DNA of 64,000 nucleotides from Nannocystis radixulma. Lineage in GTDB: Bacteria > Myxococcota_A > Polyangia > Nannocystales > Nannocystaceae. Below, in pieces: positions 9,317-62,610 of the stretch (its first letter is position 1; the number at the start of each line of letters is the position of its first letter). A model generated the notes under the pieces. It worked only from the letters and a program-made list of their open reading frames with translations. It was not told where the DNA came from and ran no database searches. The DNA lies in contig NZ_JAQNDN010000024.1 in the NCBI RefSeq assembly GCF_028369095.1, positions 409,350 through 473,349 on the forward strand, written 5' to 3'. The translations under genes were made by a program, and so were the position numbers.

Positions 9317-9390
9317 TGAGGATGATATGTCCAAAAGGACATGCGCAAAAAGACATGCATCCGCGCAGGGCGACCCGCGGGGATGCATGT
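9317..9390. repeat. 14-bp-period palindromic repeat array (about 6 units, several degenerate), upstream of the 8609..9106 lipoprotein gene
   Basis: ATG centres at 9317, 9331, 9345 and 9373 with degenerate units at 9359 and 9387; units are gatATGTcc, ggACATGCgc, agACATGCat. Confidence 0.6.
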
Positions 9391-9411: not shown

Positions 9412-10392
9412 TCACTCGCACTGGACGCGGACGTCGACGACCTCGCCCGAGCGCTCCTGGCCCATGCTGCGGTAGACGAAGCGGGCGCGCTCGAGGCCGC
9501 AGTTGCCGCGGTCGTCGCACTCGCGGCGGGTGGTGTAGCCGAGGTCGATCTCGACGATCTCGAAGCTGGCCAGCGGCAGCGTCTCCCAGCCGGTCGAGCG
9601 CCGGTCGCCGTCGTGGTCGGCCCACAGCACGAGCTCGCCCCAGCGCGCGTCGGCGGCGGTGAGCTTGCCGTCGCGGTCGCTGTCGAGCTCGGCGAGGGCG
9701 TCGAAGCCGTTGTGGGGACCTGTCCCCGAGGACATGCGGGTGGCGCTGCCGAACAGCTCGCGGCCGCCGTCGATGCTGCCGTTGCCGTCGCGGTCGAGGG
9801 CGAGCCACGGCGTGGCGGCGCCCGGCCAGTCGGCGCGGGCGCAGCTGCCGGCGCCGCCGTGGATGTCGAAATCGGCCGCGGCCACGGCGGCCGGCGTGAA
9901 CTCGATCGGCTCGCCGAAGCTGAGGACCAGCGGGGTGTTGCAGTCCTCCTGGTTCCACACGCCGCGGCCGTTCTCGTCGGCGACGCAGCCCATGTCGATG
10001 CCGTCGTCCCAACCGCACGACTTGCTCTCGCCCGGCGTGCACTCGTCCTCCTCGACGCAGGCTCCCCAGCGCTTCTCGACGCGGTTGCGCTCGGCCTCGT
10101 AGCTCACGCAGTGCTGGATCCCCTCCTCGCACGGGCGCGTCTCGCCCTCCTCCTCGCAGGTCTCGGTGAGGCAGGCGGTCCAGACGTAGGTGACCTGCTC
10201 GGGCGAATACACGCAGAACTCGACACCCGCGACGCTGTCGAGCTGACAGCCAGCCGGCGCCTCGTCCGAGGCGCACCATTCACCTTCGCGGCCGAAGTCC
10301 TCCAGCTGCGATGCGTGGTCGCCGGGGAGGATCTGGGCGTCGCAGGCGGGGAGGACGAGGAATAGCGTGGATAGGGCGAGCAGGCGGGACAT
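9412..10392 (-). CDS. Secreted lipoprotein with EF-hand-like calcium-binding loops and many paired cysteines
   Basis: MSRLLALSTLFLVLPACDAQ lipobox; DRDGNGSIDGGRELF and DSDRDGKLTAADA are DxDxDG loops. Confidence 0.65.
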   Translation of the reverse strand: MSRLLALSTLFLVLPACDAQILPGDHASQLEDFGREGEWCASDEAPAGCQLDSVAGVEFCVYSPEQVTYVWTACLTETCEEEGETRPCEEGIQHCVSYEAERNRVEKRWGACVEEDECTPGESKSCGWDDGIDMGCVADENGRGVWNQEDCNTPLVLSFGEPIEFTPAAVAAADFDIHGGAGSCARADWPGAATPWLALDRDGNGSIDGGRELFGSATRMSSGTGPHNGFDALAELDSDRDGKLTAADARWGELVLWADHDGDRRSTGWETLPLASFEIVEIDLGYTTRRECDDRGNCGLERARFVYRSMGQERSGEVVDVRVQCE

Positions 10393-13579: not shown

Positions 13580-13601
13580 TCAATGTCTCCGGGGACAGGG
13601 T

Positions 13602-13616
<15 letters not shown>
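13578..13616. repeat. 14-bp-period palindromic repeat array (3 units) spanning the nadE start codon, the 22-bp intergenic gap and the last codons of prs
   Basis: Centres at 13582, 13596 and 13610: caATGTCTcc / ggACAGGGtc / aGGACATGTCCtg. The prs C-terminus ...LAGHVL is encoded by GGACATGTCC. Confidence 0.65.
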
Positions 13617-14545
<929 letters not shown>

Positions 14546-14549
<4 letters not shown>

Positions 14550-16345
14550 GCGGCCGGGGAAGAGTACCCGGCGGCGAGCGCGTTGGCGACCTCGGTATAG
14601 GCGTAATCGCTGACGCGCTCGTCGATGCGCATGGCGAGCAGCGCCTTGCTGCGGCAGGTGGCCGCGCCGAAGAACGCGCGATCGTCGGCGCACGCGCGCG
14701 CGAGCGCCGGCTCGGTCGACCAGCGCTCGAGGTGATGCTGGAAGATCCGCCGCACCTCCGGCCACAGCTGCGCCGGGTCGGGGCCGCCGGCGTCGTCGAT
14801 CCAGCCGATCACCGCCGCGAGGTGAGCGTGCACCAGCGTGTGCATCAGCTTGCCCTGGGCCTCGGCGAGCTCGTGCGTGATCACGAACGAGTCGGCCGCC
14901 AGCGCAGGGGTGTGACCGCCGGCGGCGAGGCGGCCGCGGTGGAGCCGCACGCCGCCGAGATCGCGGACGAGGAAGCCGCGCGGACGGCCGCCTGCGTGCA
15001 CCAGCAGGGTGTTCTGCAGGTGGGCCTCGAGGGCGACGCCGTGGGCGGTGAGGAGGCGCAGGAGCGGCGGGACCAGCTGGTCGAGGTAGTCGGCGAAGAA
15101 GGCGGCGAGGCGAGCGCGCTGGTCGCCCGGGTAGGCGGCCGCGAGCTCGCGCAGCAGCAGGTCGCCGCCGGGCCGGCGCTCGCCGAGGGCGGCGCAGACG
15201 ATGACCTCAGGGACATGTTCTACGGGAAATGTTTTGAGGGACATGTCGTTCGGGGCATGTCCCAGAGGAGGAGCGGGATCGCGGGCGACCTCGCGAGCGA
15301 GCGGGGCGAGGTCGGGGCGGACGACCACGCCGAGCTGGCCGGCGACGGCGCCGTGGCGCGGGTCGAGGCCGGCAGCGGCGAGGTCGGGCTGGACCCGCAG
15401 GCCGCGGCGGGTGTGCGGATCGGCGGCCTGGATCTGGCGCAGCAGCGCGGCGATCGGCGGGCCGTTGTGGACGGAGGCGGGCGAGACCTGCCGCCGCGCG
15501 CTGGTGGTGTGGATGTCGACGGCGAGCTTGAGGTGCAGCGCAGGCGCGGCGAGGGCGACGGTGCGCAGGCTGAGCAGGGCCCGCGCCGGCAGCGGCGCGA
15601 CGGCGACGGGCCGCACGCGGTCGCCCCACAGCGGGCCGAGCAGGCGCGGCAGCCGGCGCAGCTGGAGGGCGTGGACCGGCAGGCGGACGTACCCGGGCGC
15701 GGGGGCGGGGAACAGCTCGCGCGAGATGTCGGCAAAGACAGCCTCGGCGGCGAGCAGGGCGTCGCCGCGGGCGAGGTCGACGGCGTGGACGGGCGCCTGG
15801 GCCAGCTGATCGGGGCCGTGGCGCAGGTTCTCCCACGCGCGCAGGCCGAGCCGCGTCTTGCTCATGGGGTGCCAGGGGTGGCCGTCGACGACCAGGTTCT
15901 CGGGGTCGAGCGGGCCGCGCCAGGGATGACCCTTGGCGCATGTCCGTTCGCGCAGGTCGGCGGCGACGCGGGCGAGCGCGAGGTTCCAGCGGCTGTCGCC
16001 GAGCTCGCGGGCGAGGCGGGCGCGCACCGGCGGGGCGAGGGCGGGGAGCAGGCGCGGGAGCAGCTCGGCGAGCTCGGGCAGGTCGCTGGCGTCGAGGTCG
16101 GCGGCGTGCAACTCGAAGGCCCGCAGGCGCCGCAGGGGGAGGCTCAAGGAGCATGTCTGAAGGGACATGTCTCGAAGCTCGCTCGTGACGAGCCGCTCGC
16201 GCGCGCAGGCGAGGACGAGCCGGGCGCCGATCGCCTGGCCGGCGCGGCGCCAGTGAGCGAGGAGCGCGGCGGAGTCGAGGCCGGCGCCGAACGCGGCGGG
16301 GACGGCCCGCCCGGCGAAGGCGAGGAAGCGCTCGAGCTCGGTCAC
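14546..16345 (-). CDS. IucA/IucC-family synthetase (NRPS-independent siderophore synthetase-like ATP-dependent amide ligase) with a FhuF-like C-terminal region
   Basis: Family motifs [38 protein letters not shown] and [10 protein letters not shown]...FLVRDLGG. The length (599 aa) and motif spacing match AcsD/DesD-type enzymes. Two repeat arrays lie in-frame inside this CDS. Confidence 0.75.
15196..15262. repeat. 14-bp-period palindromic repeat array (5 phased units) inside the IucA/IucC CDS, read in-frame
   Basis: ATG centres at 15200, 15214, 15228, 15242 and 15256. The stretch encodes ...[20 protein letters not shown]... on the minus strand. Confidence 0.65.
16149..16173. repeat. Two tandem palindromic units (gagCATGTCTgaag-ggACATGTCTcg) inside the N-terminal coding region of the IucA/IucC gene
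   Basis: Centres at 16153 and 16167; the stretch encodes ...[12 protein letters not shown]... Confidence 0.6.
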
Positions 16346-16418
16346 GCCGCGAAAGGTAGCGCGCGGACCCGGGCGACGAAAGTTCGCCGCGCGCCGTCCG
16401 GCTGCCGAAGATCGGGTC

Positions 16419-17425: not shown

Positions 17426-18286
17426 ATGGTGTCGGCGACGAAAGGCGCGGGCGGCTTGACAGGCGGCGGCGCGGAGGCGGACGCTCGCGGCGGCGTGACG
17501 GATCGCGGGGATACGGCGGCTGCGGCGGAGGAGCTCGCCACGGCGCCTGCAGGGCCGTCTCGGCCGCGCTGGGTGGTGATCCACTGGACGCCGGAGGCGC
17601 TGGGGTTGGTGCGGGCGATCGCGGCCGCGGAGCCGCGCCCGGCGCTGACGCTGATCGGGCCGGCGCCGGCGGACGAGGTCGCGGCGGCGCTGGCGAGCTT
17701 GCCCGAAGGACATGTCGAAAAGTACTGGCAGGGATCGGCGAGCGGCGGGGTCGAGGCGCTGGCGCGCTTCTTCGCCGACACGGCTCACTTGCCGACGGCC
17801 GACGCGATCGTGGTGCTGCCGCTGCGCGGGCACGGTGAGACCGACGCGTTCTCGCGCCTGGTGTGCACGGCCATCCAGCGGGCGTGCAAAGGCCGGCCGC
17901 CGCACGTGGTGGTGGCGGTCGAGGACCCGGAGGCGACCCACGAGTTCGAGGGGCTCGGGGTGGCGACGATCTTCTACCCGGGCTTTTTGCGCGCGGCCCT
18001 GCTGGCCCACGCGTGCGTCGACCTCGGGGCGTTCCGCTTCATGCTGGCGCTGCTCGGCGGCCGCCTGCGCGTCGAGACCTGGCCGGTGCCGCCGGAGTTG
18101 CGCGCGGGGACGTTCCGCGAGGCCTGCATCGAGATCGAGGTCGACCGCCGCGGCCGCCCGGTGACGCTGATCGGGCTGTTCGCGCCCGGCGAGGGCGCGG
18201 AGCCGGCGATGCTGCTGAGCCCGGCCCCGGGCCGACCGCTGCGCGACGCCAGCGCGCTGCTGGTGCTGACGGGAGAGGCCGAGTGA
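17426..18286 (+). CDS. RCK (TrkA-N/TrkA-C-like) regulatory domain protein, a putative gating subunit for the downstream channel
   Basis: Rossmann-like segment RWVVIHWTPEALGLVRAI...AIVVLPL plus a TrkA-C-like C-terminus (...CIEIEVDRRGRPVTLIGLF...ASALLVLTGEA). The start is uncertain. Confidence 0.45.
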   Translation: MVSATKGAGGLTGGGAEADARGGVTDRGDTAAAAEELATAPAGPSRPRWVVIHWTPEALGLVRAIAAAEPRPALTLIGPAPADEVAAALASLPEGHVEKYWQGSASGGVEALARFFADTAHLPTADAIVVLPLRGHGETDAFSRLVCTAIQRACKGRPPHVVVAVEDPEATHEFEGLGVATIFYPGFLRAALLAHACVDLGAFRFMLALLGGRLRVETWPVPPELRAGTFREACIEIEVDRRGRPVTLIGLFAPGEGAEPAMLLSPAPGRPLRDASALLVLTGEAE

Positions 18287-18306
18287 CGGCGCGCGCGGGG
18301 AGGGCT

Positions 18307-18373
18307 CGGCCTGTGCGCCGGGGCATGTTTAAATGGACATGGCTGATCGGGCCTGTCCTCGTGGGCATGTTCA
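18307..18373. repeat. 14-bp-period palindromic repeat array (5-6 units) covering the start codon and the whole signal-peptide coding region of the channel gene
   Basis: Centres at 18311, 18325 (the ATG start), 18339, 18353, 18367 and a degenerate unit at 18381. The array encodes MFKWTWLIGPVLVGMFIQSG. Confidence 0.65.
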
Positions 18374-20652
18374 TCCAGTCAGGCAGCGCGCGGGCCGGTG
18401 AGGCGATCGAGGTCCGCTTCGGCTCGGGCTCGAAGGGCGGGGGCTTCGACGCGATGGCGCACGCGCTGGCCGAGGCGGTCCGCGGCGAGGGCCGCGTGAC
18501 GGTGGCGCCGGAGACGACCAAGGGGTCGTGCGAGAATGTGCACAAGCTGCTGTCGGGTGAGCTCGACGCGGCCCTGGTGCAGTACGACGTGGCCGCCGAG
18601 GCGTACGCGGCCGGGCAGGCCGACGCCGACGCGGGCGCCAGCGCGACGCCGAAGGGCGGGTGGATGTGCAAGCTGTCGCCGGAGGAGGCCGACAAGGCCG
18701 AGCTGCGGGTGGTGGCGGCGGTCACCGACGCGGCGGTCCACGTGCTGGTGCGCCGGCCGGTCCGGCTCGACGACTTCACCGACATCGGCCGCGAGGCGCT
18801 GTTCATGGGCAAGGACGGCTCGGGCAGCTACGAGACGGCGAAGGTGATCCTCGGCGCGGCCGGGCACACGGCCGAGTCGCTGCCGCTGTTCATGGGCAGC
18901 GCCGAGGAGGCGCTGACAGCGATGAGCCGGCGCGAGGTGCTGACGATGTTGCGCACCACCGAGCGCGGACACGCGGAGATCCGCGACGTGCTGGCGTCGG
19001 GGCTGGCGACGCTGAACCCGCTGCCCGAGGCGGTGCTGAACCGGCTGATCGACGGCTACCCGTACTACCGGATCTGCCCGATCGAGACCGGGACCTATCC
19101 GGGCCTCGAGTTCAGCCTGCCGACGGTGTGCGTGAGCTCGGTGGTGCTGGTGGCGACGCCGCGCGAGCGGCTGGCGGACGAGGCGTTCCTGGCCGACCGC
19201 CGGCTGGCCGTGGAGGCGATGATCCACGGGCTGCGCAAGCTCGAGCGCGACAAGCAGCACGCGAGCCTCGGGGTGAATGTCGAGTGGCGCGGGTTCGCCG
19301 AGCGCGAGCCGATCCCGCTCCACCCGGTGGCGGAGATCCACGAGACCAGCGAGCGCCGGACGGCGTGGCTGCAGGCGGGGGCGTCGGCGGCGGCGATCGG
19401 GCTGGCGCTGTACCTGATCCGCCGGGCGCTGCGCCGCCGCCGAGTCCCGGGCGCCGGGCTCGAGAGCCAGCTGTCGAACCCGCTGGTGCCGTTCGCGGCG
19501 TTCGCCTGCGTGGTGACGCTGTCGACGTTCATCGTCTGGTCGCTGGAACATGACTCGAACGCCAGGTTGCGAACGCTGAACGACTCGTTCTGGGAGATGA
19601 ACACGTTCGCCACCGGCAACTTCACCACCGACACGCTGAAGACGCCGACGGCGCGGCTGGTCGGGGCGGCGGCGACGATCCTCGGGCTCGGCCTGCTCGC
19701 GTGGTTCACGGCGACGCTGACCAACATCTTCGCGCAGGAGCAGACGCGGCTGTGGCGGCGGCTGAAGCACCACCTGGTGGTGCTCAACTTCCGCGAGGAC
19801 ATGCTGCCGCTGATCCGCCTGCTGCGCAGCCCGGGGCCGACGCGCACGCGGGCGCTGCACGTGGTGGTCTCCGACGCGCTGCCGCGGCGCGTGCGGCTGC
19901 AGCTGGCGCGGGTCAAGGCGCTGACGATCCACCACTCGAACCCCGAGGTGCCTGAGGACCTGGCCGGCCTGCGGCTGCCGCGGGCGGCGCGGGTGATCGT
20001 GCTCGGCGACGGCGACGCGGGCGGCGAGGGCTACGACCCGCTGCGGATCGCCCGCGCGGTCCACCAGGCGTGCGCGCGCGACCCTCTCGGCGGGGGCCAG
20101 CGTGCGCGCACGCTGGGCGTGGCGGCGACGTCGGTCGAGATTGCCCGCACTGCGCCGGCGCTGCCAGTGACGCTGGTGGAGACGTCCGACGCGGAGCGCG
20201 AGGAGGTGTTCTCGCCGTTCGCGGGCTGGCTGGTGCCGGTCGACTGCCAGGCGCTGGCGCACCGCTGGCTGGTGATGGCCTGCCGCGACCGCGCGTTCGC
20301 GGAGCTGTTCAACCGGGTGGTCGCGTTCGCCGACGACAACGCCGAGGTGTACACGGCGCCGGCGCCCACCTGGCTGATCGGACAGCCGTGGCGCAAGGCC
20401 CGGCGCGCGCTGCTCGAGGTGCAGGGGCGCGGGGGCGCGGTGCCCCTGGGGCTGTACCGCGCGGCCGATCCGGGCGGGAAGGTGCCGGCGGGCGGGTCGT
20501 CGCACGCGGAGCTGCGCCGGCGCCTCATCGTCAATCCGCGGCCCGACGAGGCGGTGGCGCCGGGCGACCTCATCGTCGCGCTGTGCGAGGACGAGGCCGA
20601 CCTGGTGCGGATCGTCGCCGAGAGCCGCAAGGCCGTGCCTGCGCCGGGTTGA
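18325..20652 (+). CDS. Fusion protein: signal peptide, TAXI-type (TRAP-associated) periplasmic solute-binding domain, 2-TM pore-loop cation-channel core and tandem cytoplasmic RCK domains; a putative ligand-gated ion channel
   Basis: After SARA|GEAIEVRFGSGSKGGGFDAMAHALAEAV comes a TAXI-like fold. TM helices are AWLQAGASAAAIGLALYLIRRALRRRR and VPFAAFACVVTLSTFIVWSL. A pore-helix/filter-like segment FWEMNTFATGNFTTD is followed by the inner helix LVGAAATILGLGLLAWFTATL. Then come HHLVVLNFRED... and ...RVIVLGDGDAGGEGYDPLRIA, which are Rossmann-like RCK segments. Confidence 0.6.
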   Translation: MFKWTWLIGPVLVGMFIQSGSARAGEAIEVRFGSGSKGGGFDAMAHALAEAVRGEGRVTVAPETTKGSCENVHKLLSGELDAALVQYDVAAEAYAAGQADADAGASATPKGGWMCKLSPEEADKAELRVVAAVTDAAVHVLVRRPVRLDDFTDIGREALFMGKDGSGSYETAKVILGAAGHTAESLPLFMGSAEEALTAMSRREVLTMLRTTERGHAEIRDVLASGLATLNPLPEAVLNRLIDGYPYYRICPIETGTYPGLEFSLPTVCVSSVVLVATPRERLADEAFLADRRLAVEAMIHGLRKLERDKQHASLGVNVEWRGFAEREPIPLHPVAEIHETSERRTAWLQAGASAAAIGLALYLIRRALRRRRVPGAGLESQLSNPLVPFAAFACVVTLSTFIVWSLEHDSNARLRTLNDSFWEMNTFATGNFTTDTLKTPTARLVGAAATILGLGLLAWFTATLTNIFAQEQTRLWRRLKHHLVVLNFREDMLPLIRLLRSPGPTRTRALHVVVSDALPRRVRLQLARVKALTIHHSNPEVPEDLAGLRLPRAARVIVLGDGDAGGEGYDPLRIARAVHQACARDPLGGGQRARTLGVAATSVEIARTAPALPVTLVETSDAEREEVFSPFAGWLVPVDCQALAHRWLVMACRDRAFAELFNRVVAFADDNAEVYTAPAPTWLIGQPWRKARRALLEVQGRGGAVPLGLYRAADPGGKVPAGGSSHAELRRRLIVNPRPDEAVAPGDLIVALCEDEADLVRIVAESRKAVPAPG

Positions 20653-20683: not shown

Positions 20684-21838
20684 ATGTCGCCGTCTCGTCG
20701 TGTCGATCGTCGCGCCGCCGTCGCGTTCGGGTCCGCGCTCGCCGTGAGCTGCTACCGCGGATCGGGGATGGCCGAAAGTACAGATTCGACGGCGACGGTG
20801 GCGAGCGAGGCGACGACGGCGAGCGAGACGGGCGCGGCGAGCGGGCCGACGACGACGGCGACGACGAGCACGGGCGACGCGCCGACCACGGCGGGGCCGA
20901 CCGTGACGAGCCTGCCGGAGCCGACCGGTACGGGGCCGGACGAGACGTCGACGTCGACGGGGCCGATCGACACCGGGCCGCCGGACAGCACGGGCACGGC
21001 GGGCGAGACCATGGGCGAGCCGGTCGACCCGGTCGCGGCGGTGTGCGAGCGCTGGGCGGCGGACCGAACGGACATGTCTGAAGGGACATGGAGCGGGGCG
21101 GTCGCGGGCTGCATGGCCGGCGACACCGGGGCACCCGGCCGCGACAACGCGCTGCGGCTGGTCAACCTGTACCGCTGGCTGGCCGGGCTGCCGCCGGTCG
21201 GCCACGACGCCGCGCTCAACGCGAAGGCGCAGCAGTGCGCGCTGATGATGCACGCCGAGGGGGCGCTGTCGCACGACCCCGACATGATGTGGGCCTGCTA
21301 CACGGCCGACGGGGCGCAGGCGGCGATGAACAGCAATATCTCGTCGACGCCCGGGGTGGTCGCGGTCGACCTCTACATGGTCGACCCGGGCAACGCGACG
21401 ACCTTCGGCCACCGGCGGTGGATCCTCTCGAGCGCGCTGGGGCCGATCGGGCTCGGCTCGACGTCGGTCAACTCGTGCATGTGGGTGATCGGCGGCCAGG
21501 GCGGCGGGGGCGCCGAATGGACGGCGTGGCCGCCCCCGGGGGTCGTGCCGCTGGCGGCCATCCACGTGCCCGAGGTGCCGTGGGCCAACGTCGACGAGAC
21601 GGGGTGGACGATCCAGAGCAACGACATCGACGTGGGCGCGGCGCAGGTGACGATCCGCGAGAACGGGGTCGACAAGCCGGTCAAGCTGACGACCCTGCAG
21701 GGCGGGTTCGGCTCGAACAGCGCGATCGCCATGACGCCGCAGGGATGGGTCAGCGAGGCCGGCAAGACCTACACGGTGCAGGTGAACGGGGTGCCCCAGC
21801 CGTTCAGCTACGACGTGCAGGTGGTGGCTTGCCCTTGA
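20684..21838 (+). CDS. Secreted lipoprotein with a Thr/Ser-rich linker and a C-terminal CAP/SCP/PR-1-like domain
   Basis: LAVSC lipobox; LVNLYRWLAGLPPV...GHRRWILSS resembles the CAP-domain signature. Confidence 0.65.
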   Translation: MSPSRRVDRRAAVAFGSALAVSCYRGSGMAESTDSTATVASEATTASETGAASGPTTTATTSTGDAPTTAGPTVTSLPEPTGTGPDETSTSTGPIDTGPPDSTGTAGETMGEPVDPVAAVCERWAADRTDMSEGTWSGAVAGCMAGDTGAPGRDNALRLVNLYRWLAGLPPVGHDAALNAKAQQCALMMHAEGALSHDPDMMWACYTADGAQAAMNSNISSTPGVVAVDLYMVDPGNATTFGHRRWILSSALGPIGLGSTSVNSCMWVIGGQGGGGAEWTAWPPPGVVPLAAIHVPEVPWANVDETGWTIQSNDIDVGAAQVTIRENGVDKPVKLTTLQGGFGSNSAIAMTPQGWVSEAGKTYTVQVNGVPQPFSYDVQVVACP

Positions 21839-21890
21839 GGCATGTTTGAGAGGGCATGTCCGTTCGGGCATGCCCTTCAGGGCCTGGTCG
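21838..21890. repeat. 14-bp-period palindromic repeat array (4-5 units) filling the whole convergent intergenic gap
   Basis: Centres at 21842, 21856, 21870 and 21884: gaggCATGTTtg / agggCATGTCcg / cgggCATGCCct / agggCCTGGTcg, with degenerate flanking units overlapping both stop codons. Confidence 0.7.
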
Positions 21891-25168: not shown

Positions 25169-27268
25169 TCAGCCGGGCTCGATCGAGCAGTAGCCGCCGA
25201 TGCAGGTGCCTTCGCCCTCGCAGCAGGCGGCGTCGACCTCGCACGAGTCGCCGATGTGCGAGCAGGTGTCGGGGACGTCGGAGCACACGGCGGGGTCGCC
25301 GTAGCAGAAGCCGTCACAGCAGTCGAAGCCGGCGTTGCAGCCCTGGCCGACCTGCTTGCACGGCGACAGCGCCCACTCGCCGCGCATGTTGGAGTTGTTC
25401 AGCTCCTGGCCCGGGAGCCAGAACGCGGGGTGGCTGGGGTCGGTGCCGGGGGTGATGTTGCCGTCGATGGCGGTCACCCACAGCTGCTTGCGCCGGGTGT
25501 TGGGGTTGGTGTCGGTCAGCGTGTTGCCGTACTTGCGCTCGGAGCCGATGATGAGCCACGAGTAGCCGCCGACCGAGACCGGCAGGAAGGTCGGCTCGTA
25601 GGTGGTCTGGTCCTGGCCGGGCTCGACGATGCCGAAGCCGTTGGCCTTGTCGAGGCGGACCACCGAGGAGCCGTCGAGGTTGGTCAGCCAGACCTCGGTG
25701 ACGGCGGCGCGGGTGCGGGCCTGGTTGAGGCGGTTGAACGCGATCCACTGCGAGTCGGGCGCGAAGGTCGGGAAGGTGGTGGTGGTGAGCCCGGGGATCT
25801 TGTCGACGATCTGGTGGGCGTTGGCGAACGAGTTGGTCATCAGATCGACGTCGACCAGCCACAGCTCGCTGTTGTTGAAGTCGAGCCAGTTGCCGTCGGT
25901 CTTGCGGGCGAACGCGAGCTTGGTGCCGTCGCCCGACCAAACCGGGTGCTGCGGCTTGCCGCCGGGCACGGTGAGCTGCGCCAGCGGGGTCGCGTTGTCG
26001 AAGGTGGTGAGCTTGAGCGCGCCGGTCTCGTCGGACTGGCCCCACACCACGTGCGAGCCGTTGGGCGCGATCGCCTGGAAGCCGGAGGCGAGGTCGGGGA
26101 AGTAGAGCACCTGGCCGGAGGCGGCGTCGATGGTGCTCCACGGGCTGTAGCCGCCGTGGAAGCTGGCGGCGATCCGCGAGCCGTCCTTCGACACGCTGTG
26201 ACAGGCGACGCAGGCCACGCCCGGGGGCTTCTGAATGAACGGCTCGGGCGCGGTGGCGCCGATGTTGAGGCGGACGACGTTGCCGTTGTTGACCTCCCAG
26301 TAATAGACGGTGCCGGTGAGGTTGGCCGGGGCGATCGTCCAGGTCTGGGTCTTGGCGAGGTAGGCCTTCTGGCCGTCGTAGCGGGCGATGTCGAGGTGGA
26401 CGTCGCCCTCGGTCGAGGCGGTCAGCTTGAGCCAGATGTCGGTCGGCAGCGCCGGGAAGTCGAAGCGCGAGGGCGGCGGGACGTTGTGGTAGCCCTTGTA
26501 CTCGAAGAAGTCGCTGTAGGCGTGGACGTAATAGAGGTCGTTGGCGCCGCCGCCGTCCCATTGAATGGTGGGACCGATGAGGCCGCGCGGGAACACGGTC
26601 TTGTCGTATGGATAGAGCAGGACCATCGACGGGTCGGGGTCGACCGCCATCGGGAACAGGTCCTTGGTCTCGGGCGGGACCGGCACCGGCTCGGCGTTGA
26701 ACACCAGCTTGACGGTGGCGTTGGTGGTCGCCGCGGGCAGCTCGCCGGTGCCCTCGAAGGTGACGGTGCCGATGCCGCCGGCGAAGCCCGTGGCCGTGAG
26801 CATGCCGGACAGGTCGCCGATGCCGGCGAGGTCGAGCTTGTCGTACGACCAGGTGCCGGTGACCGGGACCTTGATGCCCTTGTCGGTGATGCCGGTGGCG
26901 GTGTACTGGGTCGCCGCTGGGATGTTGCCGTCGACGACGGTGATGATCGCGTCGAGCGGATCGATCTCGATCGAGACGACCATGCCCGGGTCGTCGCCGG
27001 TGGTCGCGGTGGTCGCCGGATCGACGGTGGTGCCGGTCGAGGTGCCCGTGGGCGGGTTCTCGGTCGGATCGCCGACGGTGCCGGTGCCCTGCGGCTCGGT
27101 GGTCGTCGGCGTCGACGTGGCGGTGGTGTCGGTGCCGGCGGTGGCGTCAGTGGCGGTGACGGTGGTGGAGGCGGAGATGACGGAGCTGTCGGTCTCGGCG
27201 GGGCGATTGGGGTCGCCGCAAGCGAGCAGGCCCGCGGCCGAGAGGAGCGACACAAAATTCCAACGCAT
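25169..27268 (-). CDS. Large secreted lipoprotein: Thr-rich linker, TolB/WD40-like beta-propeller region and a Cys-rich C-terminal knot
   Basis: MRWNFVSLLSAAGLLACGD lipobox; the C-terminus CKQVGQGCNAGFDCCDGFCYGDPAVCSDVPDTCSHIGDSCEVDAACCEGEGTCIGGYC. Confidence 0.7.
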   Translation of the reverse strand: MRWNFVSLLSAAGLLACGDPNRPAETDSSVISASTTVTATDATAGTDTTATSTPTTTEPQGTGTVGDPTENPPTGTSTGTTVDPATTATTGDDPGMVVSIEIDPLDAIITVVDGNIPAATQYTATGITDKGIKVPVTGTWSYDKLDLAGIGDLSGMLTATGFAGGIGTVTFEGTGELPAATTNATVKLVFNAEPVPVPPETKDLFPMAVDPDPSMVLLYPYDKTVFPRGLIGPTIQWDGGGANDLYYVHAYSDFFEYKGYHNVPPPSRFDFPALPTDIWLKLTASTEGDVHLDIARYDGQKAYLAKTQTWTIAPANLTGTVYYWEVNNGNVVRLNIGATAPEPFIQKPPGVACVACHSVSKDGSRIAASFHGGYSPWSTIDAASGQVLYFPDLASGFQAIAPNGSHVVWGQSDETGALKLTTFDNATPLAQLTVPGGKPQHPVWSGDGTKLAFARKTDGNWLDFNNSELWLVDVDLMTNSFANAHQIVDKIPGLTTTTFPTFAPDSQWIAFNRLNQARTRAAVTEVWLTNLDGSSVVRLDKANGFGIVEPGQDQTTYEPTFLPVSVGGYSWLIIGSERKYGNTLTDTNPNTRRKQLWVTAIDGNITPGTDPSHPAFWLPGQELNNSNMRGEWALSPCKQVGQGCNAGFDCCDGFCYGDPAVCSDVPDTCSHIGDSCEVDAACCEGEGTCIGGYCSIEPG

Positions 27269-28432: not shown

Positions 28433-29626
<1,194 letters not shown>

Positions 29627-32420: not shown

Positions 32421-33137
32421 TTGCGGGCAGTGGCACAGTCGAGAGCGTGTATTGCGCGGCTGGAAAAGCAGGCCCTGTTTTCCTATGTTCCGCGCCGCGT
32501 GACCCTCCGTGACCTGTACCCCCCGATCATCGCTCTGGCCGCGTGCCTGGGCCTGGCCTGCTCCGACGACAAGGACCCGCTCGACTCCGCGACCAATGTG
32601 ACGGCGGCGTCGGCCAACCCGACGGCCTCGTCCAACGGCAGCAACGCCAGCAACTCCGGCAACGCCAGCAACGACACCAACGACACCAACAACGACACCA
32701 CCGCGACCGACGACAGCGGCCCCGCGACCGACACGAGCGGCGCGACCGAAGGCGACGGCACCGACGGCACCGACGCCGCGCCGACGTCGGGCGAGCCGAC
32801 GCTCGGCACGACGATGGGCGCCGACACGACCAGCACGGCGACGACCGAGCCGGCGCCGACCGACGGTCCGGGCGTGCTGCCGGGCGAGGACGGCATGGAC
32901 GCGTTCTGCCGCCGCTACAAGGAGTGCGGCGGGACCTACTACGGCGACCAGCAGGAGTGCCTGCAGGCGACCTACGACTACTGGGGCGACTGTCCGTCGC
33001 GCAAGGCCGCGCTCGACGGGTTCGGCGAGTGCATGTCGGAGCTCGACTGTTCCGAATGGAACCCCGACGCCTACAACCCGGGCAGCACGCCGTGCGCCCA
33101 GCAGTGGGGCGAGGTCGAGTCGTCCGACCCGTGTTGA
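32421..33137 (+). CDS. Small secreted Cys-rich lipoprotein with an Asn/Thr/Asp-rich linker
   Basis: IIALAACLGLACSDD lipobox and a C-terminal Cys-rich module. The true start is probably a GTG near 32499, because the upstream gene ends at 32403. Confidence 0.55.
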   Translation: MRAVAQSRACIARLEKQALFSYVPRRVTLRDLYPPIIALAACLGLACSDDKDPLDSATNVTAASANPTASSNGSNASNSGNASNDTNDTNNDTTATDDSGPATDTSGATEGDGTDGTDAAPTSGEPTLGTTMGADTTSTATTEPAPTDGPGVLPGEDGMDAFCRRYKECGGTYYGDQQECLQATYDYWGDCPSRKAALDGFGECMSELDCSEWNPDAYNPGSTPCAQQWGEVESSDPC

Positions 33138-33210
33138 GTGGCTGAAGGGACATGCCCCTGAGAGCCTGTGCTCAGGGGCATGGCTCCGAGGACATGTCCG
33201 AATCGCCACC
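33132..33210. repeat. 14-bp-period palindromic repeat array (5-6 units) between convergent genes, overlapping the last 8 codons of the methyltransferase gene
   Basis: Centres at 33150, 33164, 33178 and 33192 exactly 14 bp apart; units are ggacatgccc, gagcctgtgc, gggcatggct and a perfect ggacatgtcc. Confidence 0.7.
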
Positions 33211-34446
33211 CTCGGCGCGGAAGTAGCGGAAGCCGCCGCCGCCGCGCCAGCCGACCACCGCGGTGACGCCGCTGGGGTCGCGCCCGTCGACGACGGCGCG
33301 CAGGCGGGCTGCCACCAGGCCGTCGCAGTGGTCGCCGCGCTCGACGAGGATCCACCGCCGCCGCAGCTTGTGGGCGACGGCGCCGGTGGTGCCCGAGCCG
33401 GCGTAGACGTCGAGGACCCAGTCGCCGGGGCGGGTCGACAGCTCGAGCACGCGCTTCAGCAGGGCCTCGGGCTTCTTGCCCTTGGGGAAGGCGACGCCGC
33501 CCTCGTTGTGCAGGTTGTTGGACAGCAGGTCGTCCCAGATGGTGGTGAGCGGCTCGCCGGCGACCCGCTCGCCGTCGATGTGCTTGAGCTTGGCGGCGTA
33601 GAAGAGGATCCGCTCGCCGCGGACGAAGTAGAAGTCGTCGTGGTCGTCGCGCTCCAGCCGGAGCACCTGCCCCGGCGCGGCCTTCGAGCGGTCGATCATG
33701 GCCCGCGCGGCGGCGCTGACGGCGTTGTAGTCGGGCCGCGCGAGGCGGACGACGGCGTCGGCGTGGTCGAGGACGAAGCGGTCGAGCCGCGCCGGCTCGT
33801 CGCGCGCGAGCTGCCGGGCGGCGCGCTCAGCCAGGCCCTCGGCGTCGGCGAAGGCGCGCAGCAGGGTGACGATCCGCCACGCCTCGTGCGGCTCGCCGCG
33901 GTTGACGATGAACTGGGCGTAACGTGGGTCGCGCTCGCGGGCGGTGAACAGCCGCGGCGGGTTCCAGCGCGCGCGGTCCTTCGCGTAGACGAGGACGAAG
34001 TTGGAGGTGGTGACGCAGCCGGGGTTGATCGCCTTGTGGCCGGTCGGCGCGCCCTGCTTGAAGGTGACGACCGAGGCCCGGTTGGCGCGCCCGAACACCT
34101 CGTCGAGCAGGACGATGAGGTAGCCGAGCTCGTTGTCGTCGATGTGCACGAACAGGGTGCCGTCAGCGGCGAGCAGGCGGCGCAACACCTCGAGTCGCGC
34201 GCGGATGTCGGCGAGCCAGCGCGCGTGCTCGACCCCGTCGTCATAGTGGGCGAAGGCGCGGCCGGTGTTGTACGGTGGATCGATGTAGACGCAGCGGATC
34301 TTGCCGGCGAACTCGGACTCGAGCGCGAGCAGGGCGGGCAGGTTGTCGCCGCGGATCAGGCGGTTGTCGTACAGCTCGCCGTCGACCTCGGGGCCGCCGG
34401 CGCGGTACGATCGCGCGAGATCTTCGATCAGGGGACGCGGGTCCAC
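33172..34446 (-). CDS. Beta-class (motif IV before motif I) N6-adenine/N4-cytosine DNA methyltransferase, Mod-like, with no restriction partner
   Basis: IDPPYNTG (motif IV) near the N-terminus and LDVYAGSGTTG (motif I) near the C-terminus with about 300 aa between them, a putative target-recognition domain. No res or helicase gene is adjacent. Confidence 0.75.
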   Translation of the reverse strand: MDPRPLIEDLARSYRAGGPEVDGELYDNRLIRGDNLPALLALESEFAGKIRCVYIDPPYNTGRAFAHYDDGVEHARWLADIRARLEVLRRLLAADGTLFVHIDDNELGYLIVLLDEVFGRANRASVVTFKQGAPTGHKAINPGCVTTSNFVLVYAKDRARWNPPRLFTARERDPRYAQFIVNRGEPHEAWRIVTLLRAFADAEGLAERAARQLARDEPARLDRFVLDHADAVVRLARPDYNAVSAAARAMIDRSKAAPGQVLRLERDDHDDFYFVRGERILFYAAKLKHIDGERVAGEPLTTIWDDLLSNNLHNEGGVAFPKGKKPEALLKRVLELSTRPGDWVLDVYAGSGTTGAVAHKLRRRWILVERGDHCDGLVAARLRAVVDGRDPSGVTAVVGWRGGGGFRYFRAEGGDSDMSSEPCP

Positions 34447-37087: not shown

Positions 37088-37126
37088 CGCAAGCTGTCCC
37101 ACGAGACAGGTCACGGAACAGGCACC
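37088..37126. repeat. Short palindromic repeat array (about 2-3 units) in the 37-bp convergent gap
   Basis: gCTGTCCcacgagACAGGTCacggaACAGGCACCTGg; centres 37094 and 37108. Confidence 0.45.
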
Positions 37127-37632
37127 TGGGCGGACGCGCCGCGGCAGATCGGTTCGCACCCGGGGCCGTTGGGCTGCGATTCGACGTAGGTCGGGGTGAG
37201 CTCGCCGGCCCACAGCTGCTGGCCGTCGCGGCGGATCGCCAGCTCGAGCTTGGCCGGGCTGCTCGGCACCAGGATGTCCGCGAAGCCATGTTGCTCGGGC
37301 GGCAAGGCGCAGCCGGATTCGCCGATCTGCACGCGCTCCGGGACGTCGCAGGTGAGCGAGGGGCCCGCGTCGCAGGGGCGCAGCGGCAGCGAGCCGGTGC
37401 AGGTGACGGGCGCGCCGTCGAGCGCGAAGCTGAACGTGTACTCGCCCGGGGCCCAGCCGCTGGTCGCCTTGAGTTCGATGCGCAGGCCGCCGATGCAGCC
37501 GATCTCGGTGCACATCTTGCCACCGCCGCCGGGGTCGGTCGGCTCGACCTGGCCCTTGGAGCATGCGCAAAAGAACAGGCAGGCGGACAGCACGACGGCG
37601 GCGCGGGGACGGGGCATGCCCGAGCTTGGCAC
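37111..37632 (-). CDS. Small secreted lipoprotein (about 170 aa)
   Basis: AAVVLSACLFFCACSKGQ lipobox. Its signal-peptide coding region (37563-37620) is itself built from phased palindromic units. The first ATG overlaps the predicted start of the divergent sterol reductase, so one of the two starts is wrong. Confidence 0.55.
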   Translation of the reverse strand: MPSSGMPRPRAAVVLSACLFFCACSKGQVEPTDPGGGGKMCTEIGCIGGLRIELKATSGWAPGEYTFSFALDGAPVTCTGSLPLRPCDAGPSLTCDVPERVQIGESGCALPPEQHGFADILVPSSPAKLELAIRRDGQQLWAGELTPTYVESQPNGPGCEPICRGASAQVPVP

Positions 37633-39794: not shown

Positions 39795-40175
39795 ATGCAC
39801 AAGGGATCCTGCCTCTGTGGAGCCGTGAATTTCGAGATCACCGGCGAACTGCACCCGCCCGATGCCTGCCACTGCTCGATGTGCCGCAAGCAGTCGGGGC
39901 ATTACTGGGCGTCCACCGACATCCCCCGCGCCGCCCTGACGATCCACGGCGCCGAGCACCTCACGTGGTTCCGCTCGTCGGCGAAGGTGCGGCGAGGGTT
40001 TTGTTCGACGTGCGGGTCCTTCCTGTTCTGGGACCCGATCGAGCGCGACTCGATCGCCGTCGCCATGGGCGCGTTCGACGGGCCCACCGGGATCGGGCTG
40101 GGGATGCACATCCACGTGGCGGGGAAGGGCGATTACTACGACATCGCCGACGGGCTGCCGCAGAAAGAGCACTGA
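39795..40175 (+). CDS. GFA-family (CENP-V/glutathione-dependent formaldehyde-activating-like) zinc protein
   Basis: MHKGSCLCGAVNFEI...CHCSMCRK...CSTCGS cysteine pattern. Confidence 0.75.
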   Translation: MHKGSCLCGAVNFEITGELHPPDACHCSMCRKQSGHYWASTDIPRAALTIHGAEHLTWFRSSAKVRRGFCSTCGSFLFWDPIERDSIAVAMGAFDGPTGIGLGMHIHVAGKGDYYDIADGLPQKEH

Positions 40176-40181: not shown

Positions 40182-40258
40182 GGATATGCATGAACGAACA
40201 TGTCGAGAAAGGCATGTCAAAGAAGACATGTCTATGAGGACATGACCGAACAGTCTCC
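40182..40258. repeat. 14-bp-period palindromic repeat array (5-6 units) downstream of the GFA gene; a second irregular cluster lies at 40413-40468
   Basis: ATG centres at 40186, 40200, 40214, 40228 and 40242: atATGCATga / gaACATGTCg / agGCATGTCa / agACATGTCt / agGACATGAcc. Confidence 0.7.
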
Positions 40259-42933: not shown

Positions 42934-43018
42934 GGACAGTGTCCGAGCGGACAGGTCTATCGAGGCATGTCCGATCAGACATTGTCCATTCGGACATGTC
43001 CTTTCATTGTGACAGGAA
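42934..43018. repeat. 14-bp-period palindromic repeat array (6-7 units) between convergent genes
   Basis: gGACAGTGTCCgagcGGACAGGTCtatcgagGCATGTCCgatcaGACATTGTCCattcGGACATGTCCtttCATTGTGACAGG; it overlaps the stop codons at 42931 and 43004. Confidence 0.7.
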
Positions 43019-47036: not shown

Positions 47037-47738
47037 ATGACCTCAGGGACTCGCCACACCCGTGCTTCTTCTTCCCCCACCGCGACGGCCGACCGCCCGG
47101 CGGCAGCCAAGGCCCGCTTCTGGGACAAGATCGCCCGCAAGTACGCCGCCGATCCCGTCACGGACATGGCGGGCTACGAGACGACGCTGGCCCGCGCGCG
47201 GGCGCTGATCGCCCCGACGCACCGGGTGCTCGAGATCGGCTGCGGCACGGGCACGACCGCCCTGCGCCTGGGGCCCTGCTACGGGCACCTCGTGGCCACC
47301 GACGTGTCCGCGGAGATGATCGCCATCGCCCGCGAGAAGCTCGCCGCGGCGCCGCAGCCCAACCTCGAGTTCCAGGTCGTCGACGCCGATGCCCTCGCGT
47401 TCGGTCAGGCCAGCCACGACGTGGTGCTGGCGTTCAACGTGCTGCACCTGGTGTCGGACCTCGACGCGGCTCTGACCTCGGTCGAGAACACCCTCGCGCC
47501 CGGCGGGCTCTTCATCTCCAAGACGCCCTGCATCGCCGACATGAACCCGCTCCTCGGCAAGGTGCTCTTGCCGGTGATGCGCCTGGTCGGCAAGGCGCCG
47601 CCCGTGCTGTGCTTTCGCGCGCCCGACCTGCAAGCGGCCCTGACGCGACACGGGCTGGAGATCGTCGCGGTCGAGTACCACGGCACCAAGGGCAAGGACC
47701 TCCGACCGTTCATCGTGGCGCGCAAGCGGGGCTCATGA
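47037..47738 (+). CDS. Class I SAM-dependent methyltransferase (small-molecule type)
   Basis: VLEIGCGTGTTALRL (motif I), DVVLAFNVLHLV (motif II/III). Confidence 0.8.
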   Translation: MTSGTRHTRASSSPTATADRPAAAKARFWDKIARKYAADPVTDMAGYETTLARARALIAPTHRVLEIGCGTGTTALRLGPCYGHLVATDVSAEMIAIAREKLAAAPQPNLEFQVVDADALAFGQASHDVVLAFNVLHLVSDLDAALTSVENTLAPGGLFISKTPCIADMNPLLGKVLLPVMRLVGKAPPVLCFRAPDLQAALTRHGLEIVAVEYHGTKGKDLRPFIVARKRGS

Positions 47739-47772
47739 AGATGTCCTTGGGGACATGTGTGTACATTGCGCG
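47737..47772. repeat. Palindromic repeat units (2-3) between the convergent methyltransferase and TetR gene ends
   Basis: gaagATGTCCttgg-GGACATGTGTgtACATTGcg; centres at 47741 and 47755. Confidence 0.55.
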
Positions 47773-52282: not shown

Positions 52283-53245
52283 TCAGCCCGGGATGACGAA
52301 GCACTGGATGCTGGTGTCGATGCGGAAGTTCGACTGGGTGGTGTGGCGCTCGGCGTGGAAGATGTCCATCGGGTAGGTGCCGCCGAGCTGGATGCCGAAG
52401 AAGCCGGCGTTGGCGTCGAGGTCGATCGAGTCGCTGAGGGCGCCGTGGACGCCGCCGAGGTCGATGGCGAGCTTGCCGTTGATGAACAGCCACAGGTCGT
52501 CGTCACCGGTGAATGTGAACACCTCGCCGCCCGAATAGGTGAACTCGGTGTGGATCTCGGTGGTGAAGTGGAAGTTGTGATCCTCGCCCTGGTTGCCCCA
52601 GCCCTGGTCGTCGATCGGGAAGAAGTTGTTGTTCTGGTAGGTGTATTGACCGGGCATGACCTCGGTCAACATGATCTCGATCTCGAACGATTGGTTGACG
52701 TCGGGGACGTCGTTGTACCACTGGGCGAACTCGGCCGGGCCCGTGGTGACCGAGGTGCCGCCGGCGTGGGCGTAGACCGGCTTCTTGTCGGGGCCGAGCT
52801 GCGACTGGACGATGCCGTCGAGGGTGCCACCGTAGCTCTCGAAGTCGGGGTGGCTGTTCTTGAAGTCGCGCACGACGGCCTTGAGCACCGAGGTGCACTC
52901 GGGCGGCGGGTCGCCGGTGGTGGTGGTATTCGTGGTGGTGGTCGTCGTCTCGGTGGTGGTGGTCGTGGTGGTGGTCGTGTCGGGCCCGGTGGTGGTCGTG
53001 GTGGTGCCCGGGTCGACGGGGCCGGTGGTGGACGTGCCAGTGGTCGGCGCGTCGGTGGTGGCGTCGGTGCCGGTCGGGTCGACCTCGGTGGTGGTGCCGG
53101 GCTCGGTGCTCGCGGTGCCGGGCGTGACGGTGATGTTCGTCAGGCTGCCGGCGCTGTCGCTGGTGCCCTGGACGTAACCGGAGTCGCCGCAGGCGAGCAG
53201 GACGAGGGCCGAGAAGGGGAAGCTGTATTTGAAGACATGTCGCAT
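52283..53245 (-). CDS. Secreted lipoprotein with a poly-Thr linker and a C-terminal fibro-slime/PA14-like domain
   Basis: MRHVFKYSFPFSALVLLACGDSG lipobox. The start codon region ATGCGACATGTCTTC is itself one palindromic unit. The domain shows DFKNSHPDFE and GDDDLWLFINGKLAIDLGGVHG. Confidence 0.7.
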   Translation of the reverse strand: MRHVFKYSFPFSALVLLACGDSGYVQGTSDSAGSLTNITVTPGTASTEPGTTTEVDPTGTDATTDAPTTGTSTTGPVDPGTTTTTTGPDTTTTTTTTTETTTTTTNTTTTGDPPPECTSVLKAVVRDFKNSHPDFESYGGTLDGIVQSQLGPDKKPVYAHAGGTSVTTGPAEFAQWYNDVPDVNQSFEIEIMLTEVMPGQYTYQNNNFFPIDDQGWGNQGEDHNFHFTTEIHTEFTYSGGEVFTFTGDDDLWLFINGKLAIDLGGVHGALSDSIDLDANAGFFGIQLGGTYPMDIFHAERHTTQSNFRIDTSIQCFVIPG

Positions 53246-62029: not shown

Positions 62030-62122
62030 GGGTCTCGAAACGTCTCCATGTCTTGGAGGACATGCCCTATCGAGCATGCTTCATTAAGCATGTCGAATCG
62101 AACATGCTCGATGCGACATCAG
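62030..62122. repeat. 14-bp-period palindromic repeat array (6-7 units) immediately downstream of the permease gene and next to hairpin-element copy B
   Basis: ATG centres at 62048, 62062, 62076, 62090 and 62104, exactly 14 bp apart: tCCATGTCtt / gGACATGCCc / gaGCATGCTt / aaGCATGTCg / gaACATGCTc. Confidence 0.7.
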
Positions 62123-62610
62123 GCGCGCCCGAGGCGGACGAGGGCCTGGGCGGTGTAGCCGGCGGCGAAGGGGAGCAGGCAGGAGGCGACGATGCGGAGG
62201 GCGGCGAGGCGGCCGCCGTAGATGCCGATCTCCATCGGGACGCGGAGGAGCGGCAGGAGGGCCATGCTGGTGAGGTAGGTGACGAGGACGCCGACGCCGG
62301 CGCCGGCCTTGAGGAGGCCGGCCGCGAGCGGCATGCCGAGGAGGCCGCCGCCGGGGGTCAGGGCGCCGGCGAACCAGGCGACGAGGTGGCCGCGCGGGCC
62401 GGCGGCGTCGCTGAGCCAGCGCTCGACGAAGCCGGCGGGCAACAGGGCCTCGGCCATGCCGGCGAGCAAGAACGCGACCACGAGGATCGGCATCATCGCC
62501 AGGAAGGTGCGGCCCGAGCGCTGGAGGCCGTCGACGAACACGCCCTGCATGGCCGCGAGCGCGCCGAGGACGAGCAGCGTGGCGCCGAGCAGGATGAGGG
62601 CGATCTTCAT
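62119..62610 (-). CDS. Small integral membrane protein, putative permease
   Basis: 163 aa, about 5 hydrophobic helices. Confidence 0.5.
   Translation of the reverse strand: MKIALILLGATLLVLGALAAMQGVFVDGLQRSGRTFLAMMPILVVAFLLAGMAEALLPAGFVERWLSDAAGPRGHLVAWFAGALTPGGGLLGMPLAAGLLKAGAGVGVLVTYLTSMALLPLLRVPMEIGIYGGRLAALRIVASCLLPFAAGYTAQALVRLGRA

Follow-up and report, generated by a model that had tools for sequence, protein, structure and literature searches.

Whenever a repeat is found lying on the first codons of a gene, it must be asked whether it was placed there to control translation or was instead taken up as coding sequence. This question is raised by a 64,000-nucleotide stretch of the Nannocystis radixulma genome (contig NZ_JAQNDN010000024.1, positions 409,350 to 473,349; here called the window), in which four copies of a 14-bp palindromic unit cover the start codon of a gene with a TAXI-family solute-binding domain and the greater part of its signal peptide. 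The original prediction, made from the letters of the window, proposed either that such arrays are recruited as 5' coding or leader sequence or that they are regulatory sites deliberately placed on translation-initiation regions. Judged by comparison of orthologous loci, the TAXI array is a captured copy of a stop-anchored repeat and not a purpose-built initiation device. The wider explanation, which we hold with moderate confidence, is that the repeat forms a stop-anchored 14-bp family, captured at the TAXI start, whose units are likely sites for a dimeric factor at gene ends.

A repeat array on the start of a TAXI-family gene

Three features define the locus. Coordinates are those of the window, and repeat arrays, here and below, are given without a strand.

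18319..18374: the flagged array, four 14-bp units CGGGGCATGTTTAA / ATGGACATGGCTGA / TCGGGCCTGTCCTC / GTGGGCATGTTCAT
18325..18396 (+): start codon and Sec-type signal peptide MFKWTWLIGPVLVGMFIQSGSARA of the TAXI-fusion gene, placed by translation and homologue alignment
18325..20652 (+): gene with a TAXI-family solute-binding domain (PF16868), identified by translation, Pfam match and homologues

Units were scored in bits with a dyad-symmetric motif matrix (w-n-G-G-A-C-A-T-G-T-C-C-n-w) built from the window's own units. Units in phase with one another and scoring at least 8.5 bits each were joined into chains, and 200 shuffles of the window served as background. Within the array originally claimed at 18311-18381, four units are present in exact 14-bp steps, starting at 18319, 18333, 18347 and 18361 and scoring 12.2, 13.0, 8.8 and 14.1 bits, and the phase positions on either side score -0.2 and -8.3 bits. 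The window as a whole contains three chains of four units, one of three and five of two, compared with a mean of 0.005 two-unit chains and none of three or more in the shuffles.

The CATG core of the first unit contains the ATG at 18325, as had been predicted for what was then called a channel gene. Of the 24 codons of the signal peptide, codons 1-17 lie within the four units, and the array thus encodes the start codon and most of the peptide, rather than the whole of it as first proposed, ahead of the cleavage context ARA/GE (the slash marks the cleavage site). By inspection, the peptide can be divided into MFK, WTWLIGPVLVGMFI and QSGSARA/GE, and it has the features expected of a Sec signal, including a conserved position in homologues: all 120 of the 120 homologues carry an N-terminal signal peptide of about 20-30 residues ahead of the conserved segment E-P-x-x-RFG-x-GSKGGGF. 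Array-shaped signal peptides are found in the Nannocystis orthologues MFLRTWPIAPVLLGMFLQ (N. exedens), MMKRTWLFVHVLAAMF (P0005) and MRRTWRWGHVLLAMAL (P0009), whose units also stay in phase in the DNA. The array itself is kept in N. exedens, P0005 and L136 (an N. pusilla genome) and partly kept in P0009.

Codon composition sets the array-encoded segment apart. The G+C content of third codon positions (GC3) is 0.79 in the array-encoded signal peptide versus 0.97 in the remainder of the TAXI gene, and the array segment includes the rare codons ACA (1.8% of Thr), CCT (2.4% of Pro), TTT (3.2% of Phe) and AAA (3.4% of Lys). An in-frame GTG at 18313 was considered as an alternative start and is disfavoured. 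It has no counterpart in the sequence read from N. exedens or L136, and ATG 18325 is the favoured start because neither of these relatives has an alternative in-frame start just upstream.

The product of 775 aa appears from its sequence to combine a periplasmic TAXI domain with a C-terminal part that has a membrane-spanning look. Its closest homologue is named 'RCK N-terminal' by one source. Proteins of this length are kept across Nannocystaceae, with about 300 additional residues in some relatives.

A phased 14-bp repeat family of Nannocystis

The array belongs to a family whose unit is the 10-bp palindrome RRRCATGYYY (R, purine; Y, pyrimidine) plus 4 unconstrained bases, 14 bp in all, occurring singly or in head-to-tail arrays of 2 to 6. 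In the window, whose G+C content is about 72%, successive CATG sites lie exactly 14 bp apart in 16 cases, GGRCATGT is found 28 times versus 2.65 expected, and there are 41 matrix matches of at least 12 bits versus 2.3 expected. Strong units occur at 0.64 per kb; by extrapolation, a genome of 11-13 Mb would hold thousands of copies.

A larger sample was assembled from 77 Nannocystis loci, chosen because each holds an array of at least four units, together with the window (680 kb in all). Spacings between units in this sample are 14 (333 times), 28 (53 times) and 42 (10 times), with hardly any others. Arrays of three, four, five and six units number 45, 41, 41 and 24, respectively; none is longer, and their edges are abrupt. 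The ceiling of six units corresponds to 84 bp, or about eight helical turns. A profile of 648 units retains only RRRCATGYYY with nearly random flanks, and the spacers are diverse and unrelated from array to array. Some cores are non-palindromic (CCTG or CAGG), as at 18347, 16593 and 29477 in the window, and sometimes occupy whole arrays in one orientation (L072:1937-1992, L060:5516-5585 and L051:7331-7414). The transition variants CGTG, CACG, TATG and CATA are essentially absent.

When one genome per species (185,579 species) was searched for four phased units, the matches were overwhelmingly from Nannocystis: RBIL2, bainbridge, exedens, pusilla, punicea and one metagenome-assembled genome, to which the window is 83-96% identical. 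Two apparent occurrences elsewhere do not belong to the family. In Plesiocystis, a motif enrichment (5 versus 0.7 expected) proved to lie entirely in genes and to consist mostly of ordinary, unphased codon strings such as GAC-ATG-TTC, and a 23-kb locus from that genus has zero intergenic units and zero arrays. Some of the single 'units' inside genes of the window are probably ordinary codon strings of the same kind. The four-unit pattern in viral contigs came only from ordinary minisatellites, perfect repeats of 14 bp in unrelated contigs of low GC content.

The family is apparently undescribed. Searches of the window with Rfam (at gathering thresholds) and a tRNA scan gave no match, and the literature on myxobacterial or Nannocystis repeats, terminators or the decamer yielded no description of a 14-bp repeat family, only unrelated papers and papers on p53. 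Probably by coincidence, the core RCATGY is identical to the specificity of NspI-type restriction enzymes, and the decamer RRRCATGYYY is identical to the consensus for a p53 half-site.

Arrays follow stop codons

The position of the arrays relative to genes is informative about what the family is. Gene positions were taken from our own codon-usage gene calls. Among the 151 arrays of at least three units, 70 lie in convergent, 50 in tandem and only 3 in divergent intergenic regions, with 28 in coding or other sequence; the sample holds 98 convergent, 281 tandem and 94 divergent regions. Distances to a flanking stop codon have a median of 17 nt, and 111 of 215 fall between -15 and +20, whereas distances to a flanking start codon are broadly spread around a median of 145 nt. 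In a hand tally of the window, which was not selected for arrays, arrays of at least two units occupy 5 of the 12 convergent gaps and are missing from all of the roughly 12 divergent ones. The family usually lies within the first 25 nt or so past a stop codon, and its arrays are concentrated in convergent gaps, with some in gaps between co-directional genes.

Start codons are not enriched in the repeat: unit cores hold 9.5% of ATG starts versus 16.5% of all ATGs in the array-enriched sample. Because arrays follow stops, seldom occur in divergent gaps and do not attract starts, the repeat is to be regarded as a gene-end element rather than an initiation element.

Capture at the TAXI start and inside proteins

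If arrays belong behind stop codons, an explanation is needed for one that lies on a start. The upstream neighbour of the TAXI gene is relevant here:

17426..18286 (+): upstream co-directional gene, start uncertain, stop codon at 18284-18286, 32 nt ahead of the array

In most orthologous loci, the TGA stop of the upstream gene overlaps the TAXI ATG (as ATGA), and a unit starts exactly at this TGA (TGAGACATGTCCTG). The orthologous loci hold one unit (P0021, P0009), two (P0017), three (P0036) or four (P0005, exedens, L136 and the window), and the upstream stop and the TAXI start are separated by 38 nt in the window and 181 nt in L136. These observations show the following course of events. The ancestral TAXI locus had the ATGA overlap, so that a unit placed after the stop fell within the first TAXI codons. 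The array then expanded, to between 1 and 4 units depending on the lineage, and later insertions split the upstream stop from the TAXI start while the array remained with the coding sequence. A unit of 14 bp is not a whole number of codons, and so the frame shifts from each unit to the next, cycling through all three and giving M-F-K, W-T-W, G-P-V-L and G-M-F. The resulting peptide happens to be workable as a Sec signal, with a K in the n-region followed by a core of hydrophobic residues and the cleavage site ARA.

The members of a clade of more distant Nannocystis-like TAXI orthologues (P0016-P0034; L110-L112) all start with MRHVLK (ATG AGA CAT GTC CTG), and this start is a single unit placed straight after the ATGA stop/start overlap.

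Capture is also observed in protein linkers and C-termini. Two examples in the window lie in a single gene:

15209..15264: four-unit array translated in frame as a 19-residue peptide, in the linker between the IucA_IucC and FhuF domains of gene 14546..16345 (-); GC3 0.48
16147..16174: two-unit array translated as 10 residues near the N-terminus of the same IucA/IucC gene, found with the matrix

The linker insert occurs in Nannocystis orthologues only, with 4 to 6 units. Six are found in N. punicea, together with a frame-preserving 42-nt duplication, and a second linker position carries an independent array insert in another clade. Overall, 13 of the 151 arrays of at least three units lie in open frames with coding signal on either side, encoding peptides such as xHV(P)..DMS..T(G/C/F). 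The proposal that arrays are recruited as 5' coding sequence is therefore borne out for the TAXI signal peptide, which is array-encoded across Nannocystis lineages, and capture is broader than had been proposed.

Constraint and turnover

Closely related genomes indicate which parts of the repeat are maintained. The window was compared with L136, which is 95-96% identical, using the union of units recognized in either genome. Changes were found at 2 of 120 positions in the CATG core, 12 of 180 in the R/Y flanks and 20 of 120 in the spacers, compared with a divergence of 10.4% in other intergenic DNA and 6.0% at third codon positions. Array positions are conserved between the two genomes. From these figures we infer constraint on the family at the level of its sequence. 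The two genomes share the 14-bp phase even though their spacers (about 16%) evolve faster than other intergenic DNA (about 10%). Arrays are still present in orthologous gaps at 83-92% identity, but they consist of different units.

Larger differences from L136 were also noted. In place of 71 nt of the window (16347-16417), L136 carries 2.35 kb with three genes, and window segments of 3.8 kb (23527-27360) and 2.1 kb (30281-32419) are absent from it.

Possible functions and competing explanations

Each unit is most likely the phased recognition site of a putative dimeric, sequence-specific factor acting at gene ends. Such a factor would mark or insulate the 3' ends of transcription units in both directions, and the hairpin capacity of neighbouring palindromes probably contributes at the RNA level. 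Two rivals to this dimeric-factor explanation are serious, namely a pure RNA hairpin and a selfish repeat maintained by drive.

The first of these, which we consider somewhat unlikely, would dispense with a dedicated factor. In the transcript, neighbouring units would base-pair into a stem of about 10 bp closed by a 4-nt loop, forming bidirectional terminators that lack a U-tract, or barriers to 3' exonucleases like those formed by repetitive extragenic palindromic (REP) elements. The post-stop position and the enrichment in convergent gaps speak for such an element, and the arrays do fold strongly. Their mean z is -4.2 versus -0.2 for controls, with 80% of arrays below -2, and the mean minimum free energy of four units is -27 kcal/mol versus -15.5 for shuffles, as expected of a G+C-rich hairpin. 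The sense strand of arrays between co-directional genes has an excess of G and U (p = 0.007), and its folds are about 2 kcal/mol more stable, although for this gain p is only 0.11. Also in favour of this explanation, canonical terminators are not enriched in the window (6 versus 3.5 expected).

Against this explanation, compensatory covariation is weak or absent under either pairing scheme, in adjacent units, in nested units and in the alignment of TAXI orthologues. An early impression of hairpin covariation came from hand-picked perfect dyads and was lost on counting; the R and Y half-site positions vary independently of each other. CATG is conserved far beyond the needs of a stem, and the sole tolerated variants, CCTG and CAGG, break the pairing, whereas wobble-compatible transitions are essentially absent. 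Furthermore, the length of the loop is invariant and all-CCTG arrays cannot pair between units. A U-tract 3' of the arrays is likewise absent: T makes up 15.6% of the 12 nt downstream on the sense strand, and of 101 arrays only 3 are followed by 10 nt that include at least 5 T. With no covariation, a fixed loop, core variants that break pairing and no U-tract, unit-by-unit recognition by a dimer is favoured, and RNA structure is given a contributory role.

A more explicit version of dimeric recognition, which we regard as unlikely in this particular form, holds that a putative protein places one dimer on each RRRCATGYYY and builds a filament of up to six dimers (84 bp) behind stop codons, providing bidirectional ending or insulation that replaces intrinsic terminators. 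If this were true, the repeated absorption of its sites into proteins as signal peptides and linkers would be a by-product.

The selfish alternative, which strikes us as quite unlikely, supposes that a transposase, biased gene conversion or an uptake bias maintains the repeat without any function at individual loci, and that copies survive where they do no harm (3' gaps, linkers and signal peptides). Several observations would follow naturally from this, including the restriction to a single genus, the turnover of array content between species in orthologous gaps, the independent insertions at two IucA/IucC linker positions and the absence of arrays from promoter-bearing divergent gaps. Units are also duplicated, with 32 near-identical adjacent pairs versus 10 expected, in addition to the 42-nt duplication in N. 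punicea. Other observations are difficult to reconcile with drive. The 14-bp phase is strict despite substitution-saturated spacers, arrays stop at six units, they sit tight against stop codons and not anywhere in the 3' gap, and their positions are stable between 95%-identical genomes. No mobilising gene was found, though none was looked for.

Finally, the proposal that arrays are regulatory sites on translation-initiation regions, acting through a hairpin that sequesters the AUG or a protein footprint over the start, is highly improbable: a predicted fold of 18300-18390 does pair the AUG in a stem between units 1 and 4 (-41.2 kcal/mol) and a few further starts lie within units, but arrays follow stops rather than starts, only 3 occur across 94 divergent gaps, starts are underrepresented in units as noted above, the fold has a marginal z of just -1.9 and a covariation term in the alignment fold of +1.8 that lends no support, and L136 has the same array on its TAXI start behind a different upstream gap, which fits plain inheritance as coding sequence.

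Certain points weigh against the dimeric-factor explanation itself and must be accounted for. No binding factor was identified, and none was looked for. A pure RNA hairpin element would explain the G/U bias of the sense strand and the post-stop position just as well, and arrays within open reading frames (ORFs) are awkward for a strong terminator or roadblock function. The core-conservation test has an ascertainment bias that the union of units lessens but does not remove, the location statistics depend on our own gene calls and on loci selected for arrays of at least four units, and the TAXI translation start was placed by sequence comparison only.

Other copies in the window

The remaining arrays of the window, identified with the matrix, are mostly found at gene ends:

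9321..9362: three-unit array, 49 nt past the stop of 9412..10392 (-)
21068..21095: strong unit (21068-21081) and an unscored CATG copy 14 nt on, within ...GGACATGTCTGAAGGGACATGG...
21836..21877: three-unit array in a convergent gap, starting at the TGA of 20798..21838 (+), with a weak fourth unit at 21878; kept in L136
25105..25155: units at 25105 (weak), 25119 and 25142, 13 nt past the stop of 25169..27253 (-)
33146..33201: four-position array (15.7, 4.6, 8.1 and 16.6 bits) filling the convergent gap between 32499..33137 (+) and 33172..34446 (-)
40194..40249: four-unit array in a convergent gap, 18 nt past the stop of 39825..40175 (+)
42947..43003: three in-phase units and a strong unit 1 nt off, filling the convergent gap 42931-43004
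47735..47762: two-unit array on the stop of 47037..47738 (+), in a convergent gap
62056..62111: four-unit array, 7 nt from the stop of 62119..62610 (-), with a weak fifth unit at 62042

Turnover can be seen at two of these sites. The gap orthologous to 25105-25155 in strain RBIL2 holds a five-unit array at another spot, and the gap orthologous to 42931-43004 in N. pusilla (L022) holds other units. The gene adjoining array 33146-33201 (33172..34446, minus strand) is a DNA methylase gene. The ATG at 21074, inside the first unit of 21068..21095, matches the called start of a CAP-domain gene in L136, and our own gene calling begins this gene at 20798.

Three further sites had been put forward as starts or signal peptides encoded by arrays, and they can be described as follows:

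13591..13618: a strong and a weak in-phase unit across the prs stop (13602-13604), from matrix scores
37557..37623: the claimed 'lipobox' array, unconfirmed, with two weak out-of-phase matches
53231..53244: single unit over codons 2-5 of a lipoprotein-like gene with a PA14 Pfam match (MRHVFKY...LLAC), 15 bits

At the first site, a three-unit array at 13578-13616 was said to hold both the nadE start and the prs stop. A strong unit (13605-13618, 15.4 bits) and a weak one in phase with it (13591-13604, 5.9 bits) are present, and the prs stop does lie in the unit region, with unit 13605-13618 encoding the final prs codons (C-terminus ...AGHVL before the stop). The third unit is lacking, as the nadE ATG (13577-13579) falls in 13577-13590, which has a non-significant score of -4.6 bits. 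The single unit proposed for the start of the fibro-slime lipoprotein at 53231-53245 is real, being a 15-bit unit within ATG CGA CAT GTC TTC (MRHVF). 'MRHV' N-termini are not a general theme: ATGCGNCATGT occurs just 4 times in 680 kb, and 2 of these are real starts. The array said to encode a lipobox at 37563-37620 dissolved into two 9-bit matches that lie out of phase at a distance of 53 nt. The lipoprotein ORF on the minus strand (37111..37632) is itself doubtful because an ORF of the ERG4/ERG24 sterol-reductase family (37250-38767, plus strand) overlaps it, and one of the two calls must be wrong in 37500-37632.

Other repeats in the window were also recorded. A 69-bp tandem repeat at 54091-54220 (1.9 copies, 91% matches) is unrelated to the 14-bp family. 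Short tandem-repeat runs with periods of 3-36 bp (GGT and CGACGA-type) at 6565-6847, 28652-28832, 32633-32863, 34851-34956 and 52916-53095 have an in-frame look and look like low-complexity protein linkers.

Significance and comparison with known systems

There are several reasons why this family might merit further attention. The TAXI signal peptide offers a clean, datable case in which non-coding repeat DNA has been turned into a functional protein part, with 1, 2, 3 or 4 units depending on the lineage. The family is very abundant and strictly phased, and its genus has genomes of 11-13 Mb in which classical terminators are not obvious; the repeat may therefore reveal how gene ends are marked in these GC-rich bacteria. 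A practical lesson should also be considered. About one in six ATGs in the array-enriched sample lies in a unit, and thus start calling, as well as ORF calling near arrays, is easily misled in Nannocystis.

Several known systems share some features with the family, but none of those compared has its geometry. The features of these systems (REP, Rickettsia palindromic elements, uptake sequences, mycobacterial units and MetJ sites) are given as general background except where a source is cited. A CRISPR array can be ruled out, as the period of 14 bp, the 4-nt spacers and the limit of six units do not agree with CRISPR repeats, which are about 23-55 bp long and alternate with unique spacers of comparable size. 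Canonical intrinsic terminators share the G+C-rich hairpin with the Nannocystis arrays, which lack the U-tract.

In distribution, the closest likeness is to REP elements and the bacterial interspersed mosaic elements (BIMEs) that contain them. These are also high-copy, lineage-specific, palindromic, hairpin-capable and often clustered after genes or between convergent genes, and the density (0.64 strong units per kb), location (70 convergent, 50 tandem and 3 divergent arrays) and median stop gap (17 nt) of the Nannocystis family agree with this. The unit by itself is only a 10-bp palindrome. Two neighbouring units can form a hairpin of about 24-28 nt, and the arrays lack compensatory covariation. 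The REP and BIME sequences of enterobacteria and pseudomonads consist of imperfect palindromes, 20-40 bp long, that have GTAG or CGTC as a head and are variably arranged, and they are linked to REP-associated tyrosine transposases (RAYTs). In contrast, the Nannocystis family has a 10-bp palindrome in phased, direct 14-bp arrays of up to six units, and neither head is present in the profile of 648 units. General Pfam scans of part of the window's ORFs revealed no RAYT (IS200/IS605-like), and no search was aimed at one. Roles proposed for REP elements include termination, mRNA stabilisation and protein binding (PMC3733652).

The DNA uptake sequences (DUS) of Neisseria and uptake signal sequences (USS) of Pasteurellaceae present another distributional resemblance. 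They have a core of about 10 nt, are genus-specific, occur about once per kb, are often paired at terminators after genes and also have copies within ORFs at tolerant positions. Their core is kept by drive and not by function at each locus. Unlike the Nannocystis units, they are non-palindromic and do not form phased tandem arrays. Mycobacterial interspersed repetitive units (MIRUs) are tandem repeats in operon gaps whose ends overlap the upstream stop and the downstream start, but their units are 46-101 bp long and non-palindromic and have a different genomic distribution.

Capture within proteins has its nearest parallel in the Rickettsia palindromic elements (RPEs), which are inserted in frame into coding genes and translated at tolerant sites. 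The IucA/IucC insert is likewise in frame and restricted to one lineage, with the frame kept by either 4 or 6 units. RPEs differ in being single elements of about 100-150 bp that are not anchored to stops, whereas the Nannocystis arrays share only the 10-bp core and have unrelated spacers.

Overall, no described family with this geometry was found: the distribution is like that of REP and DUS and the capture in ORFs is like that of RPEs, but the family lacks defining features of each. For the arrangement of the units themselves, the metboxes bound by MetJ provide a useful analogy. These are contiguous, tandem 8-bp palindromes (2-5 copies) in strict phase, with degenerate units that each bind one dimer cooperatively. 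Metboxes lie in the promoters of one regulon, with a handful per genome, whereas the Nannocystis arrays lie at gene ends; by analogy, they are a precedent for a reading in which each 14-bp unit would be bound by one dimer.

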